A DNA stretch of 64,000 nt from an uncultured Opitutaceae bacterium (GTDB lineage Bacteria > Verrucomicrobiota > Verrucomicrobiia > Opitutales > Opitutaceae), in contig CALFXL010000028.1 in assembly GCA_937958045.1 (NCBI GenBank), positions 19,992 through 83,991 on the forward strand, given 5' to 3'. The notes below the pieces were generated by a model. That model worked only from the letters and a program-made list of their open reading frames with translations, did no database searches and was not told the origin of the DNA. Below are positions 5,029 through 45,448 of the stretch, piece by piece (position 1 is the stretch's first letter; every line of letters starts with the position of its first letter). Both the position numbers and the translations under genes were made by a program.

Positions 5029-5114
5029 GCCCGGGTGGTGGAATGGTAGACACCAGGGACTTAAAATCCCTTGCCTGTAAAGGCGTACCGGTTCGAGTCC
5101 GGTCCCGGGTACCA
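5029..5114 (+). tRNA. tRNA-Leu (anticodon TAA), CCA encoded
   Basis: GCCCGGG/CCCGGGT acceptor stem, D-loop GGAATGGTAGAC, AGGGA-CTTAAAA-TCCCT anticodon arm, long variable arm, GTTCGAGTC T-loop. Confidence 0.97.
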
Positions 5115-15239: not shown

Positions 15240-16394
15240 ATGCGAATTCTCCCTACCCTGACATTGGCACTGGCTTGCACGGTCGCTGGTTCCGCCATCG
15301 CGGCCGACACGACCCCGCCCGCGCCCGCGGACATCCTGCGGACGTTGCGGCTCACCAATGAGTACTTCATGGCGAAGTGGCCGGACACCGGCAAAGTCAT
15401 CGTCACCAATCGCGCACGTCCGTCCAATATCTGGACTCGCGCTGTTTATTACGAGGGCTTGATGGATCTGTATAAGATCGATCCGGATCAGCGTTATATC
15501 GACTACGCCGTGAGCTGGGGAGAAGCCCACAAGTGGGGCCTTAATCGCGGCGTGAACACGACCGATGCTGACAACCATTGCGCGGGTCAGACGTACCTCG
15601 CGCTCTATGAAATGGACCCGAAGCCGGAGCGCATCCGCGACATCAAGGCATCGATCGATCGCGTGATCGCCGAGGACGACGATGCGGCGTGGTGGTGGAT
15701 CGATGCGCTGCAGATGGCGATGCCCGTGTACGCGAAACTCTCCGCGATCACCGGTGAATCGAAGTACGTGGAAAAAATGCACGCCATGTACCTCCACACA
15801 AAAAACAAGCACGGTGAAAAAGGACTCTTTAATCCGGCGGACGGTTTCTGGTGGCGCGACAAGGATTTTGATCCTCCCTACACCGAGCCCAATGGCGAAG
15901 ACAGCTATTGGTCGCGCGGCAACGGTTGGGTCGTCGGTGCGATGGTGCGCACGCTCGAATTGCTCCCGCAGGATTCGCCGTATCGCAAGGAGTACACCGA
16001 CATGCTCGTGACGATGTGCGAAGCCGCGCGCAAGGTGCAGCGCGAGGACGGTTTTTGGAACGTGAGCTTGCACGATCCGAATCACTTCGGCGGAAAGGAA
16101 ACCTCGGGCACCGCGCTCTTCGTGTACGGCATGGCTTGGGGCGTGCGTCAGGGATTGCTGCCGCGCGATGTGTACGCGCCTATCGTGTACAAGGCGTGGA
16201 ACGCGATGGTGAAAGACGCGGTGCACCCGAACGGCTTCCTCGGTTATCTCCAGAGCACGGGCAAAGAGCCGAAGGACGGCCAACCGGTCACGTATGACAA
16301 ACAGCCGGACTTCGAGGACTATGGTCTCGGTTGTTTCCTGCTCGCGGGCACGGAAGTGTATCGCCTCGTCGGCGGTCAGCCGGTCTCCCGCTGA
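15240..16394 (+). CDS. GH105 unsaturated rhamnogalacturonyl hydrolase (GH88/105 family), secreted
   Basis: Signal peptide; NIWTRAVYYEG, WWWIDALQMAMP, YWSRGNGW, ETSGTALFVYG. Confidence 0.9.
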   Translation: MRILPTLTLALACTVAGSAIAADTTPPAPADILRTLRLTNEYFMAKWPDTGKVIVTNRARPSNIWTRAVYYEGLMDLYKIDPDQRYIDYAVSWGEAHKWGLNRGVNTTDADNHCAGQTYLALYEMDPKPERIRDIKASIDRVIAEDDDAAWWWIDALQMAMPVYAKLSAITGESKYVEKMHAMYLHTKNKHGEKGLFNPADGFWWRDKDFDPPYTEPNGEDSYWSRGNGWVVGAMVRTLELLPQDSPYRKEYTDMLVTMCEAARKVQREDGFWNVSLHDPNHFGGKETSGTALFVYGMAWGVRQGLLPRDVYAPIVYKAWNAMVKDAVHPNGFLGYLQSTGKEPKDGQPVTYDKQPDFEDYGLGCFLLAGTEVYRLVGGQPVSR

Positions 16395-16433
16395 GAAAAT
16401 TGAATTCACTGCACGCGATCGAAATGATCGCCG

Positions 16434-16465
16434 AAAAAGCCCGGGCTGATCGGCCCGGGCTTTTT
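16434..16465. terminator. Bidirectional intrinsic terminator between convergent GH105 and PL11 genes
   Basis: AAAAA-GCCCGGGC-TGATCG-GCCCGGGC-TTTTT. Confidence 0.85.
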
Positions 16466-16525
16466 GTTGAGAGATTTTCAAATAAATCGGCAGCTGATGG
16501 GAGCGCAGCCGCTGGCCGGCTCCTT

Positions 16526-16552
16526 GGAAAGTGCCGGCGGGCCGCCGGCGCT
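16526..16552. repeat. REP-like palindromic repeat, copy 1 (copy 2 at 61363-61389)
   Basis: GGAAAGTGCCGGCGGGCCGCCGGCGCT; 26 of 27 bases identical to copy 2; internal palindrome GCCGGCGG-G-CCGCCGGC. Confidence 0.65.
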
Positions 16553-16671
16553 CCTGATAGGTGCGCTCAACGGCTACGACAGATTGAAAATATTCTCATT
16601 GGCCGAAGGGGAAATCGACGTGGAGCGGCGGTTGCGAGCAACCGCCTTACCTCGCGACTGACGCGATCATG

Positions 16672-18951
16672 TTACGGCACGGTGATCTGGTCGATGTTGC
16701 CGAGATCGTTCCCGGTCGAGGTAAACTGAATCACGTTCGACGAGTTGTTGTTGAGCGTCACGTTTATGGTGAGCGTGTTCCACGTCGTCCATGAACCGGT
16801 TGGCGTGAAGGTGATGCTCGAAGTCGATCCGTTGACGGTGAGGTTGCCCGTGCGCGACGCGGTGACGCCGAGCGCGTAGCGAATCTGCAGGGCTTTGGTG
16901 CCGCCGCCATTTCCCGAGACGCCGGTGAAGGTGAGAGAACCACCGCTGGCGGGGAAGTTGGCGAAACCGGAGCCGTTGAAGCCGGCGTTGTTGGAATCGA
17001 TCGTCGTGCCGCCTGCGACCGTGGCGTTTTCGGCTTGGTAGGTGTTGCCGGTCGGCGGCGGAGTGGAGCCGCCGACGTAGGTGATGTTGGCCGCAGGCTG
17101 CGCGCCCATGCCGGTACCGAGATAGAAACTCGGATGCGGCGGCTGATTGTAGCCGACATTTTGCCAGGCGATGGCCACGCGGTACTGCGCGTCGTGCATC
17201 AAGGTGTAGAAGCGATTCGTCGCGACTGTAGTGGAAACGTAGATACGCAGCGCCGAGTTGTTGCTCTCGCGCCAGATGACTTCCTCGCGCCAATCGCCGA
17301 GAATATCGGCCGAGAGATTGGGCGTGGCTTTGGTGCCGTTGTTGGATGCGACTCCGGAGGCGGCGAGCAAGGTGCTGGCGTTGCCGGCGGTTTCGTTCCA
17401 CTTCGAGATTGTGGTGCCGTCGAGCAGTTCGCGTTTCAGATCGGCGTCCCACCAAATCATGAAGTTGATCGGGCTGGGGCGCGATGAACCGATGACGGCG
17501 CCGGAAGCGGAATAGAGGTTGGAATTGCTGGCGCCCCAGAACTCGTAGCCGGCGTAGCGTGAATCGATGTCGCCACAAACGCCGCGGCCGATGTCCGACG
17601 ACGCGGAGGTGCTCCAGAGAATCGTGCCGGTGTTGGCGTCGCGGAACGACGTGCCGATTCCGCCGTTGGAGCCGGGGCTTTCGTGCGGCATGAAGATCTC
17701 GAGACCGGGACGGCTCGGGTTCATGTCGGAAACGTGCAGCGCGTCGCCATGACCGAGGCCCGTGGTGTGTTTGCCGGTGCCATTGTCGTCGATGACGGCG
17801 GCGCCGTAGATGATCTCGTGGCGTCCGTCGTTGTCGACGTCGGCGATGGAGAGCGAGTGCGCGCCCTGGCCGCGATAACCGCCGAGCGAGCCGCCGGAGT
17901 GCCCGGTGTCGAAGGTCCAGCGCTGCGTGAGCTGGCCATTGCGATAATCCCATGCGGCGACGACGGCACGCGTGTAATAACCGCGGCACATGATCAAACT
18001 CGGGCGTGTGCCATCGAGGTACGCGATGCCCGCGAGGAAACGATCGACGCGATTGCCGTAGTTGTCGCCCCAATTGCTAACGGTGCCGCGCGGGGGATTG
18101 TAATTGGCCGTCGCGAGAATGGCGCCTGTCTGGCCGTTGAAGATGGTGAGATATTCCGGCCCGCTCAGGATGTAGCCGCTGGAATTGCGATGATCGGCGG
18201 AGGCGTTGCCGATCACTTGACCGGTTCCGGAGATGGTGGCGTCGGCGGTTTTGCACGCGACCTCGGCTTTGCCGTCGCCGTCGAGATCGTACACCATGAA
18301 TTGCGTGTAATGAGCGCCCGCGCGGATGTTGCGCCCGAGATCGATGCGCCACAGTCGCGTGCCGTTGAGTTTGTAGGCGTCGAGATAGACATTGCCGGTG
18401 TAGCCGGACTGGGAGTTGTCCTTTGAATTGGACGGATCCCATTTCACGACGATCTCGTACTCGCCGTCGCCATCGAGATCGCCGACCGAGCAATCGTTGG
18501 GCGAGTACGTATAAGACTCGCCGCTGGGCGTGGTGCCACCGGCGGGGATTTGCAACGGAACGCGCAGGTAACCCGTTGTGGTTGAGTTGGAGGGCAGCGT
18601 GAAGCCGGCGCTCGCGGGTTGTTCGACGCCATTGATGACGGGGCGCACGGTGTACACGTTGGTCTGCGAGGCGACCGAAGACGTGTCCACGAAGTTGGTC
18701 GAGTTGGTGATGGGCGAGCTATTGAGCTTCACCGGCGAACCGCCGTTGGCGGAGCGGTAGACGTTGTAGGCGATGCCGGACGGATCGAGTCCGAGCTGGC
18801 GCCAGCCGACGTACACTTGCGAACTGCTGGTGCGCAGGGCGACGACACCGCGGCCGAGGGATTCCATTTGGTAAGGAGCGGCAAAGGCGCATGCGGCTCC
18901 GAGCGCCAAGCATAGCGCCAGCGCGGACAGACATGAACGTGCAGATTTCAT
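16672..18951 (-). CDS. PL11 rhamnogalacturonan lyase (YesW/YesX type) with C-terminal CBM35/CBM6-like module
   Basis: [72 protein letters not shown]; C-terminal YQAENA...[10 protein letters not shown] module. ATG 18951 begins the signal peptide. Confidence 0.93.
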
Positions 18952-19156
18952 GGGGTATGGGGTTGGGGTAATGCCCGTGGACGGCCGCATAGGTACACGC
19001 GCCCGCCAAGAGCGATTAGGGGTAAGTGCCGGTAGCCGGCACGGGCACAGCGGACTCAGATTCGCCGTTTTCACAAAAACCGGTGAGTCGTACAGTCAGT
19101 TTGGTAAAGTCATTTGCGCTTCGTGCCGTTGGGATGAGTTGGTCCTTTTTACGATT

Positions 19157-27173: not shown

Positions 27174-28298
27174 TCAGAAAGCGCGCGACAGCGAGACGGA
27201 ACCGAACTCGTTGAACTCTTCGGGCTGTCCGTCGAATTCCCGGGTGCGGTAGGTTTGCGCGAACGTGAGCTGCCATTTGCCGGCGATCAGACCGAAGCCG
27301 TAGCTCAAGTCGGCCACCAGCGGTTTTTTGTCCACGCTGGGGCTGTCTTCCCACGTGTTGCCATCGAGAAAGATGTCGCGTGCGACGGCGCGTCCATCGG
27401 CGATGGCGAAGAGATAAAAGCTCCAGCTGCGGCGCGGCGAAACGCGCGGATCGTAGTCGTCGAGCGGTGCGTTCACCGTGCCGCCTGGACGGATGAGTTT
27501 CACGCCGAAGTCGCTGGGCAGATTGATGCCGAGGCGCACGGAGGCGCCGGCGTTGGCGTGCGTTTGTACATTGCCGAGGCTCGCGCCGAGATGCGGGATG
27601 AGGTCGACGCCGAGCGAGTTGCTGAACGCGCGCGCGTAGAGGCGCCAATTGCGTTCATAGATGACGTTTACGCCGACCTCATCTTCGAGCTGATATTCCC
27701 AGCCATTGGGACGCGAATCGTTGATCCATTCGTGTACGTGACGCTGCGTGGTGTCGGCGTAGGAATGCGGACCGATCATGCCGACTTGGATCGACAGCGT
27801 GTCCATGATCGTCGCGGTTTTGCTGACGAAATTGAGTTCCGCGTATGTCCAACCCGCGTACGGACGATCGTTGGGATCGGGCACGAATGCGTCGGTGTCT
27901 TGCGGCGTGTAGATGTTTTGGCCGAGTGCGAAGCCGAAGTTTTTCTGCGCGCCCTCGCGATTGATGAACGGAAGAACCTCCAAGAAACGTCGACGCGCCC
28001 CTTCGCGGCCCCACGTGCTCAAGTCGGCGGAGAGCCAGGAGAACTTCGCTCCATTGGTGTAGTGACGATCGGTGCCGCCGAAGTAGTCGTTCTCGAAATA
28101 AATGCTGAAGACGGGAGCGGAGCGTGCGCGCGCCGAACCGTTTTCATCGAGAGTAGGTCCCGGACCGGTGATGGACGGCGGCTCGCCCTCGGCGGATGTC
28201 GTCGCTTGTGCGAAAGCGGACGAAGAAAGCGCGAGCAAAACGGCTGCCGCGCCACCACGCATCGCGATAAAAGAAGAGGAGTGAAACAGTGTGTGCAT
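27174..28298 (-). CDS. Lipid A deacylase LpxR-family outer-membrane protein (DUF2219)
   Basis: SIYFENDYFGGTDRHYTNG, GQNIYTP, DRPYAGW, GRAVARDIFLDGN, C-terminal SLSRAF. Confidence 0.88.
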   Translation of the reverse strand: MHTLFHSSSFIAMRGGAAAVLLALSSSAFAQATTSAEGEPPSITGPGPTLDENGSARARSAPVFSIYFENDYFGGTDRHYTNGAKFSWLSADLSTWGREGARRRFLEVLPFINREGAQKNFGFALGQNIYTPQDTDAFVPDPNDRPYAGWTYAELNFVSKTATIMDTLSIQVGMIGPHSYADTTQRHVHEWINDSRPNGWEYQLEDEVGVNVIYERNWRLYARAFSNSLGVDLIPHLGASLGNVQTHANAGASVRLGINLPSDFGVKLIRPGGTVNAPLDDYDPRVSPRRSWSFYLFAIADGRAVARDIFLDGNTWEDSPSVDKKPLVADLSYGFGLIAGKWQLTFAQTYRTREFDGQPEEFNEFGSVSLSRAF

Positions 28299-28574
28299 GA
28301 TGCCCAGAAAGTGGGCGGAGCACGGCGAATGTTCCCGATGGTGCGCGGTTTTATCGTTTATAAGTTATTGTTTTTCAGCGTAATGCAAAATGCTAAGTGG
28401 CGATGCTTCGAGGCGGGCAATGTGCAGTGCCGCACGGTTTTGCGCGCTCGAAACCTCCGGTGTTCAAACTCGCATGGTAGCGCACGCGGGAGGCTTACAC
28501 AGCGTAACGCGCATGTCTGTATTTGATTTTTGGATACGTTACGGTCGTGCGAATGTCTGCGGGGGGCGTGGGAT

Positions 28575-28604
28575 TTGACAGAAGCGTTTTTGTTTTTGCA
28601 TACT
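28575..28604 (+). promoter_or_regulatory. Sigma70-like promoter upstream of the hss leader
   Basis: TTGACA (28575-28580), 18-nt spacer, CATACT (28599-28604). Confidence 0.6.
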
Positions 28605-28655
28605 CGAGAGGTGAAACCGATCCGGCATAGATCGAACGTCTTTCGCCCGCGCCTG

Positions 28656-28800
28656 CGCGCGGGAGTGGAGCCGTTCATCCTGCTAGGGTGACCGGTGTCG
28701 TGAGTTGAACGAATCGGGCTTGGGCGCAACTGCGCCGGCCGATCGTTACCACAGGCACCGGCAGCGAAACTCCACCCTGCGCGGAAAATTTCATCCGCGC
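28656..28800 (+). ncRNA. Structured RNA in the hss 5' leader (three-way junction), candidate cis-regulatory element
   Basis: Hand-folded helices: 28656-28670 with 28770-28783 (14 bp, one bulged A), 28676-28690 hairpin, 28692-28761 long hairpin; G-U pairs support the plus strand. Confidence 0.55.
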
Positions 28801-28864
28801 GCCAACCAACTGCGTCCGTCGCCGCATGGGCTTTCTCACGGGCGCGTCCTCTCGTTCGCTAACT

Positions 28865-30310
28865 ATGGAATTCAAAAACAATGTCCTCATCATTGGTTAT
28901 GGCATCGTCGCGCAGGCGTTGCTGCCGATGTTGCTCAAACATCTTCGCGTGCCCGCGGAGCACATCACGGTGATCGATCTCGCGGATCGTGGCGGCACGT
29001 TGCGGCCATGGACGGCGCGCGGCGTGAAATTCGTGCACGAAAAAGTGACGGCGTTCAGCCTCGGTCGTCTGCTGTCCGCGCATGTGAAGCCGGGCGATCT
29101 GATCGTCGATCTCGCGTGGAGCGTGGAGTTCTTCGACATCATCCGCTGGGCGCACGACAACCAGGTGTTGTACGTGAACGCCTCGCTCGAGTCGTGGGAT
29201 CCGTCCGCGGATTCGCAGCAGCGTCCGACGATGGACAAAACGCTTTATGCGCGCTACGTGCGCTTGCTGGCGCTGAAAGATAAATGGCGCGAAGGCCCGA
29301 CCGCGGTCGTCGATCACGGCTCGAATCCCGGCCTCGTTTCTCATTTCACCAAAAAAGGTCTGCTCGACATCGCGGAGGCGGCGCTGCGCGAAAAAGTGCT
29401 TCCTGCGGCGCAGGCGAAACGTGTGCAACGCAGCGCGGAGGCGAAGGATTTCGCTGCGCTCGCGCAGGCGCTGGAGGTTCGCGTCATTCATTGCAGCGAA
29501 CGCGATACGCAGCGCGCGAACACGGCGAAAGCGCCGGACGAATTCGTCAACACATGGAGTGTCGAAGGCATGTGGGAAGAATCGATCGCGCCGGTCGAAC
29601 TCGGCTGGGGCACGCATGAGAAAACGCTACCGCCGCGTGCGCTGAAACCGGAGCATGGACCGCGCAATCAGATCGTGCTGCCGCAAATGGGCATGAACAC
29701 ATGGGTGCGCACCTGGGTGCCGGAAGAAGAGGTCGTCGGCATGGCGGTGCCCCATGGCGAAGCATTTGGCCTGTCGCATGCACTCACGCTTCGCGATGGA
29801 GATCGCGCGGTGTATCGGCCGACCGTTTATTACGCATATGTGCCGAGCAACGATGCGCTCGTGTCGTTGCATGAACTGCGTGCCCGCAATTACGAACTGC
29901 ATCCGCGCAAGCGCATCCTCACCGACGAAATCGTGACGGGCACGGATCGCGTCGGCGCGTTGATCATGGGCCACGCGTTTCGCTCGTGGTGGACGGGCAG
30001 CGTGCTCTCGATCGCGGAGGCGCGCAAAAAAGTGCCGGGCGTCAACGCGACCTCGGTGCAGGTCGCGGCCGGTGTGCTCGCGGCGGTGTTGTGGTCGCTA
30101 CGCAATCCGCGGCGCGGGCTTTGCCTGCCCGAAGATTTGCCGCACGAGGAAGTGTTGCGCGATGCGAAGCCGTATCTCGGCGAGACGGTATCGGTGCGTT
30201 CGGACTGGACGCCGCTCGTGCAGCAACGCGTGTACTTCGAGGAAAACGAAGACGCGTGCGTCGATCGCGAGGATCCGTGGCAATTCCAGAACTTCGTTTT
30301 CCGTCCGTAA
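28865..30310 (+). CDS. hss: Homospermidine synthase
   Basis: VLIIGYGIV Rossmann motif, LIVDLAW, AVVDHGSNPGLVSHF, IHCSERDTQ, EFVNTWSVEG, YRPTVYYAY, NATSVQVAAG. Confidence 0.93.
   Translation: MEFKNNVLIIGYGIVAQALLPMLLKHLRVPAEHITVIDLADRGGTLRPWTARGVKFVHEKVTAFSLGRLLSAHVKPGDLIVDLAWSVEFFDIIRWAHDNQVLYVNASLESWDPSADSQQRPTMDKTLYARYVRLLALKDKWREGPTAVVDHGSNPGLVSHFTKKGLLDIAEAALREKVLPAAQAKRVQRSAEAKDFAALAQALEVRVIHCSERDTQRANTAKAPDEFVNTWSVEGMWEESIAPVELGWGTHEKTLPPRALKPEHGPRNQIVLPQMGMNTWVRTWVPEEEVVGMAVPHGEAFGLSHALTLRDGDRAVYRPTVYYAYVPSNDALVSLHELRARNYELHPRKRILTDEIVTGTDRVGALIMGHAFRSWWTGSVLSIAEARKKVPGVNATSVQVAAGVLAAVLWSLRNPRRGLCLPEDLPHEEVLRDAKPYLGETVSVRSDWTPLVQQRVYFEENEDACVDREDPWQFQNFVFRP

Positions 30311-45363: not shown

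Positions 45364-45448
<85 letters not shown>

Follow-up and report, generated by a model that had tools for sequence, protein, structure and literature searches.

The hss locus and its putative promoter

The window, by which we mean the whole 64,000-nt stretch of DNA analyzed here, belongs to a bacterium of the Opitutaceae (Verrucomicrobiota) found repeatedly in metagenomes from compost and soil. It encodes a homospermidine synthase (Hss) whose gene is monocistronic, the next downstream gene being on the opposite strand, and which is separated by a 566-nt spacer from lpxR (27174-28298), an upstream gene on the opposite strand that points away from hss. The comparison set comprised 58 hss loci from species-representative genomes together with contigs for the closest Hss proteins. 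Within it, the Opitutaceae MAG L001, whose Hss is 95% identical, is the sole diverged relative with the leader described below. The features of the locus are as follows:

28865-30310, plus strand: hss, homospermidine synthase of 481 aa, assigned by Pfam domains and matches to solved structures
28575-28604, plus strand: promoter-like site, with -35 TTGACA (28575-28580), an 18-nt spacer and -10 CATACT (28599-28604)
28570-28712, plus strand: block conserved in the alignment with L001, running from the promoter through HP1 and along the 5′ strand of HP2
28620-28689, plus strand: HP1, a 70-nt imperfect hairpin, from the minimum-energy fold of the isolated domain and the two-species consensus
28692-28761, plus strand: HP2, a 70-nt hairpin with a conserved 5′ strand, CCGGUGUCGUGAG.UGAACG
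28779-28800, plus strand: HP3, hairpin GCGCGGA-N8-UCCGCGC, with no U tract after it
28811-28846, plus strand: HP4, hairpin with arms UGCGUCCG and CGG.CGCG, which L001 retains in part
28656-28783, plus strand: proposed three-way junction, closing helix 28656-28670 with 28770-28783, an alternative fold of the window species

The protein carries the N- and C-terminal Sacchrp_dh domains (PF03435 and PF16653) and matches the solved homospermidine synthases 2ph5, 4plp and 6s65 over residues 3-480 (E from 4e-94 to 1e-84), and the source databases name its relatives homospermidine synthase. Judged by these matches, the gene downstream of the leader is a genuine homospermidine synthase. Alignments support ATG 28865 as its start rather than the in-frame ATG 28826 used by the public gene calls P0001 and P0121 (494 aa): Hss relatives align from residue 1 at ATG 28865, and DNA similarity between the window and L001 resumes exactly at this start, ATGGAATTC. 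Because both alignments favor ATG 28865, the 494-aa call is probably too long, and its 13 extra codons (28826-28864) are non-conserved leader sequence. No Shine-Dalgarno sequence was found upstream of ATG 28865, where the stretch 28850-28864 is C/U-rich. C/U-rich starts that lack a Shine-Dalgarno sequence are seen in the closest Opitutaceae hss genes (L001, L013, L059, L060 and L061, all with the N-terminus MEFK), and the window lpxR likewise lacks such a sequence; GGAGG-type sites precede hss in more distant Verrucomicrobiota relatives.

A preliminary description of this locus had proposed a near-consensus promoter and, from it, a long leader before hss, and the sequence supports both. The promoter-like site agrees with the consensus at 10 of 12 positions; a scan of both strands of 28250-28950, where 0.3 sigma-70-like sites would be expected by chance, gave no other. 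L001 has the same hexamers at the same spacing, within a segment (28570-28610) that is 88% identical. Transcription would accordingly begin near 28610-28613, as the position of this site suggests, which gives a leader of about 255 nt before ATG 28865. When RNA data were searched for the transcription start, two runs matched, and these cover only parts of the hss coding region.

Predicted fold of the leader

The leader folds at −119.4 kcal/mol, as against −103.6 ± 4.5 kcal/mol for dinucleotide shuffles (z = −3.55), and none of 200 shuffles was as stable. Among 161 windows of 271 nt across the 64 kb (mean z −0.4, sd 1.2), it ranks second, and the only one above it is a region with an ordinary bidirectional terminator. 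The stability of the leader therefore exceeds what chance or base composition would yield, which bears out the earlier view that it is large and structured. Strong structure upstream of hss is not general among relatives, most of which have z near 0; a generally structured hss leader across Verrucomicrobiota is thus ruled out.

The strongest folding outlier of the 64 kb is 16401-16671 (z = −6.4), with further hairpins to about 16700. It includes, at 16434-16465, a perfect bidirectional intrinsic terminator, AAAAAGCCCGGGC-UGAUC-GGCCCGGGCUUUUU, placed between the convergent ORFs 15240-16394 (plus strand) and 16672-19074 (minus strand), which shows that the organism uses canonical terminators elsewhere. 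No intrinsic terminator was found in 28250-28950, including after HP2 or HP3.

The best explanation of the modeled structure is that the leader forms a row of four hairpins, HP1 to HP4, and not a three-way junction. HP1 is built from the stems ACCC/GGGU, GGCA/UGCU, GAU/AUC, GAACG/CGUUC and CUUU/GGAG, capped by an apical CCCGCGC/GCGCGGG, and starts about 9 nt from the predicted 5′ end. It is the minimum-energy fold of the isolated 5′ domain for the window allele (−33.7 kcal/mol), for the allele with C at position 28621 (−36.3 kcal/mol) and for L001 (−37.1 kcal/mol), and it is also the two-species consensus fold (RNAalifold). Its probability is 0.996 in L001 and about 1.0 for transcripts of the window ending at 28691 or 28765; HP1 would therefore form first during transcription.

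HP2 takes the same shape in both species, its 3′ strand and tip having diverged yet remaining paired. In the lower stem, four A/G changes on the 3′ strand of L001 keep the pairing with an invariant 5′ strand and move the bulge, and the tip is re-made with a different sequence. HP3 has a pairing probability of 0.95-0.99 in the window, and L001 has at its site an unrelated short hairpin, CUCCCGCGGGAG. Hairpins form at the positions of HP3 and HP4 in both species, with sequence in common at HP4 only, and from HP4 to the ATG the leader is an unstructured C/U-rich stretch. The individual hairpins listed in the preliminary description are all present, namely CCCGCGC-CUGC-GCGCGGG at 28646-28663, the hairpin at 28779-28800, the 6-bp hairpin at 28676-28690 and the 70-nt hairpin at 28692-28761.

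Two further pairings were rejected. Pairing of 28605-28611 with 28848-28854, seen in one fold, was discarded because it reaches upstream of the predicted transcription start. In the minimum-energy fold of the window, the 5′ strand of HP1 sequesters the start codon, but this pairing is no better than in shuffles and is absent in L001.

A predicted allele-dependent alternative fold

The leader had first been drawn as a three-way junction, closed by a 14-bp helix, that could exchange with a second, exclusive fold. The junction uses the same nucleotides as HP1 and so competes with it. The complementarity of the closing helix (28656-28670 with 28770-28783, A28664 bulged) is real and gives a duplex of −30 kcal/mol, but the full 14-bp helix has a probability of less than 5%: its lower 8 bp stay below 0.05 in the full RNA because the local hairpins at 28646-28663 and 28779-28800 win. 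A 6-bp GUGGAG/CUCCAC closing helix combined with the 28676-28690 hairpin is the minimum-energy fold, and only with T28621.

Position 28621 is polymorphic, with C in 9 of the 11 same-species contigs that cover the site and T in the window. Compost and soil runs differ in the allele they carry, and the commoner C is also the state in L001. C28621 turns a U·G pair of HP1 into C-G, strengthening the hairpin, and moves the balance of predicted folds away from the junction and toward HP1 (0.74-0.79 for HP1 vs. 0.21-0.26 for the junction fold in the full leader). The upper 6 bp of the closing helix correspondingly have a probability of 0.73-0.94 with the window allele vs. 0.21-0.26 with the common allele, and L001 has no junction-type pairs above 0.02. 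Two parts of the proposed switch, the second local hairpin and the 3′ strand of the closing helix, fall in the unconstrained part of the leader.

The three-way junction consequently does not stand as the fold of this leader, since it loses to HP1 with C28621 and is absent in L001. Of the idea of two exclusive folds, the local hairpins survive, both being present, but the alternative is neither conserved in L001 nor the preferred fold of the common allele. In the window species the HP1 and junction folds are 0.5-2.5 kcal/mol apart, and a switch between them is thermodynamically possible according to the energy model. In addition, CGUUCA (28672-28677) has two alternative pairing partners, the conserved GAACG copies at 28634-28638 and 28707-28711.

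Sequence conservation of the leader

Comparison with L001 sets the 5′ part of the leader apart from the rest of the spacer. The block 28570-28712 is identical at 122 of 143 positions (85%) and has no gaps, as compared with 37-70% identity, mostly gapped, for the other spacer segments (48% with gaps for 28713-28864). At its four-fold degenerate sites, hss of the window is 73% identical to hss of L001, and against this rate the block is conserved with P = 3e-4, which indicates that 28570-28712 is under purifying selection. Divergence over the final 150 nt ahead of the ATG is close to the neutral rate, so that no link from HP1 and HP2 to the start codon is visible.

Substitutions within HP1 are enriched in unpaired positions: the hairpin has 14 unpaired and 56 paired positions, and of its 11 substitutions 6 hit the former and 5 the latter (Fisher p = 0.006; p = 0.014 with the L001-derived fold). 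Among the paired changes, C28676U converts G-C to G·U, and at C28644G with AGU to CAC at 28664-28666 the helix re-forms one position over. A covariation count over three distinct sequences from two species found one compensatory pair, A-U to G-C, in HP2; 99% of cells are paired. In this count 155 of 500 shuffles do equally well, and with two species it has no statistical power. As read from this alignment, constraint applies both to the sequence and to the pairing of HP1 and of the 5′ strand of HP2.

A second conserved block, AT-rich, lies at 28346-28440 (TATAAGTTATTGTTTTTCA..TAATGCAAAATGCT..GCAATGTGCAGTG), in the interval that separates the start of lpxR from the promoter of hss. It contains long runs that are identical in L001, in surroundings that have diverged. 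It may be the lpxR promoter or operator region; a consensus promoter scan of 28346-28440 found no site.

Known RNA families and open reading frames

Searches of the whole window against Rfam 15 at the gathering threshold returned only two tRNAs, at 5029-5111 (plus strand) and 45367-45448 (minus strand). With the threshold relaxed to E ≤ 10, cmscan of 28300-28950 gave only Burkholderiales-2 (E = 9) and a vertebrate lncRNA, both noise. The preliminary description could not match the leader to the SAM-I, cobalamin, guanidine-I, lysine, glycine, TPP or FMN consensus, and this agrees with the absence of any cmscan hit to a known family, speF and SAM-I included, beyond that noise even at E ≤ 10.

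No ATG-initiated ORF is listed inside the leader. A GTG-initiated frame of 26 codons (28612-28692) is open without indels in L001, where it loses its stop and extends to 30 codons, and it has neither a Shine-Dalgarno sequence nor an AUG. Its substitutions fall at codon positions 1, 2 and 3 in the numbers 3, 6 and 4 and change 6 of 26 residues. The frame at 28612 is not convincing as a leader peptide or upstream ORF, as the substitution pattern is not coding-like and the stop is not conserved; preservation of RNA structure explains these substitutions better than coding does. Small ORFs on either strand were likewise rejected, because indels outside the conserved block are not in multiples of three and substitutions inside it are not coding-like.

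Distribution of the leader

Only L001 gave a diverged homolog of the leader; all other sequences were either from the same species (>99% identical) or had upstream regions that could not be aligned, among them L059, L060 and L061, whose Hss proteins are 76%, 75% and 71% identical. The leader was found upstream of no hss whose product is at most 76% identical, nor at more than 30 other hss loci, and the protein database contains no Hss clusters between 76% and 90% identity. Four further searches agree in finding it in the window species and L001 at most: blastn and nhmmer against 75 loci and an all-against-all comparison of 34 hss upstream regions each recovered only these two, a covariance model of HP1 and HP2 run over 36 sources had as its best other match one with E = 0.065 that is not upstream of hss, and a metagenome scan with the 21-base core pattern ACCGANCCGGCATAGATCGAAC returned two contigs, both from the window species.

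Contigs of the Hss cluster members are all >99% identical to the window, and among compost and soil contigs at ≥80% likeness the only difference is the T/C variant at 28621. The leader occurs just once in the window, and as a single-copy sequence it is ruled out as a repeat or mobile element. Taken together, the leader is genus-restricted, structured and real.

Possible functions of the leader

With a little more confidence than doubt, we favor the reading that this is a 5′ leader of hss, transcribed from a sigma-70 promoter, in which HP1 and HP2 form a cis-acting element that sets expression after initiation. The monocistronic hss mRNA would be transcribed from the conserved sigma-70-type promoter at 28575-28604, and its leader would fold as HP1 (28620-28689), HP2 (28692-28761), HP3 (28779-28800) and HP4 (28811-28846). 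HP1 and the 5′ strand of HP2, which are the best-supported functional core, would then constitute the RNA element that sets hss expression once transcription has started, and the structured leader probably acts in cis. The most likely route would be specific recognition by a factor acting in trans (RNA-binding protein, RNase or sRNA), which would change either the stability of the mRNA or the initiation of translation independently of a Shine-Dalgarno sequence. Conservation of the stems far beyond the need for pairing points to recognition by a protein, RNase, sRNA or ligand, or to a doubly constrained alternative pairing. The analysis shows the promoter-like site, the stable fold, the conservation and the sparing of paired positions by substitutions; from these we infer where transcription starts, that the element works as RNA and how it controls hss.

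The near invariance of the stems might instead come from constraint on the DNA, in which case the promoter would be accompanied by transcription-factor operators that reach into the transcribed region, and the hairpins would be incidental to GC-rich sequence. Conservation does start at the promoter and runs on continuously across it, the stems are nearly invariant instead of covarying, and the region contains the palindromes CGATC-N7-GATCG (28617-28634) and CCCGCGC..GCGCGGG. However, the roughly 100 nt conserved past the start would make a long operator, neither the common C28621 allele nor L001 keeps the CGATC/GATCG palindrome intact, substitutions avoid the positions that are paired in the RNA, and the pairing of HP2 survives the changes in its 3′ strand. 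We consider this explanation unlikely.

Somewhat less probable again is a passive role, as a 5′ stabilizer of the mRNA, or no function at all, the structure then following from GC-rich composition. The placement of HP1 about 9 nt from the predicted 5′ end suits a stabilizer, as do an unconserved 3′ half and the lack of a recognizable expression platform; given the latter and the restriction to two species, the leader may be just a lineage-specific 5′ UTR structure. Against such a role, HP1 has 2-5 changes in 52-56 paired nucleotides where about 14 would be expected at the rate of four-fold sites, and in HP2 the 5′ strand is conserved and its partner strand is not.

The preliminary description had offered the leader as a candidate polyamine-responsive riboswitch or leader, and of this the structured leader before hss stands, but the riboswitch does not fare well. 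Here HP1 and HP2, or the junction, would bind putrescine, homospermidine, spermidine or NAD+ and switch hss through alternative folds, possibly with Rho-dependent termination or start-codon accessibility as the output. In its favor are a structured, sequence-constrained leader before a biosynthetic gene, the 0.5-2.5 kcal/mol between the HP1 and junction folds in the window species, the two conserved GAACG copies available to CGUUCA (28672-28677), a C-rich, G-poor CCAACC after HP3 in both species, and the existence of a true spermidine riboswitch class (PMC10853860). On the other side, Rfam gives no match even at E ≤ 10, there is no terminator in an organism that uses canonical ones, there is no Shine-Dalgarno sequence to mask, and the 5′ strand pairs with the start region no better than shuffled sequences do. 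Aptamers are normally conserved much more widely than two species, and this element is absent at Hss identities of 71-76% (L059 to L061), at the other loci and in the metagenome scan. Because of this absence, an alternative fold that is unavailable in L001 and the lack of a visible expression platform, we judge ligand sensing to be decidedly improbable. More improbable still is the specific form in which HP1-HP2 is a genus-restricted aptamer for a polyamine (homospermidine or putrescine) or NAD+, the resulting feedback on hss acting either by selection between two nearly isoenergetic folds, HP1 and the junction, or by Rho-dependent termination within the C-rich sequence that follows HP3. If true, it would be the first RNA sensor tied to homospermidine synthesis and the first in Verrucomicrobiota.

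There is only a slim chance that HP1-HP2 is a separate sRNA of about 150-175 nt, for which HP2 is succeeded in L001 by a short hairpin with a trailing UUUUU but the window has no terminator after HP2 or HP3, or that the GTG frame at 28612-28692 encodes a leader peptide of the kind that controls enterobacterial polyamine genes (PMC7815308, PMC6386406), since that frame, although open in L001, has a non-coding substitution pattern, an unconserved stop and no Shine-Dalgarno sequence or AUG.

Comparison with known polyamine-linked leaders

Within the literature searched, no paper links hss to a riboswitch. We know of no work on the regulation of homospermidine synthesis in Verrucomicrobiota, and to our knowledge RNA-level control of polyamine genes is documented in few cases only. 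Structured leaders that proteins or RNases recognize, such as ribosomal-protein leaders and ompA-type 5′ stabilizers, have 5′-proximal imperfect hairpins with invariant stems and bulges and no terminator; the hss leader, found in two species only, may resemble them.

Known RNA elements linked to polyamines include the speF motif (PMC1273637) and a spermidine-sensing SAM-I variant (PMC10853860), as the preliminary description correctly stated. Like the alphaproteobacterial speF motif (RF00518; Corbino et al. 2005, PMC1273637), the hss leader is a long structured leader of a polyamine gene, confined to one lineage and with no proven ligand; unlike it, the hss leader precedes a homospermidine synthase gene rather than one for ornithine decarboxylase, belongs to another phylum and has no similarity to the motif in sequence or structure. 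The spermidine riboswitch described by Salvail et al. 2023 (PMC10853860) is also located upstream of a polyamine synthesis gene and would be a functional analog if the hss leader senses a polyamine, but that class has the SAM-I four-stem junction (RF00162), whereas the hss leader consists of tandem hairpins with no SAM-I match.

Control of polyamine genes by leader peptides and termination is known from enterobacteria and Borrelia (PMC6386406, PMC7815308, PMC10319736). As in speFL and mdtU (PMC6386406, PMC7815308), the hss leader is long, precedes a polyamine-related gene and has a short frame overlapping the conserved block; in contrast to them, this frame lacks an AUG, a Shine-Dalgarno sequence, coding-like substitutions and a conserved stop.

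The conserved leader offers a concrete 150-nt target, 28611-28765. Among the relatives, L059 (Hss 76% identical) carries an unrelated hss leader that ends, at 1527-1555 and some 10 nt ahead of the ATG, in a hairpin resembling a terminator, CGGGCCCG-CUGU-CGGCCCG with CCGGUUUUUG behind it; this hints that a different leader controls hss by attenuation in that species.
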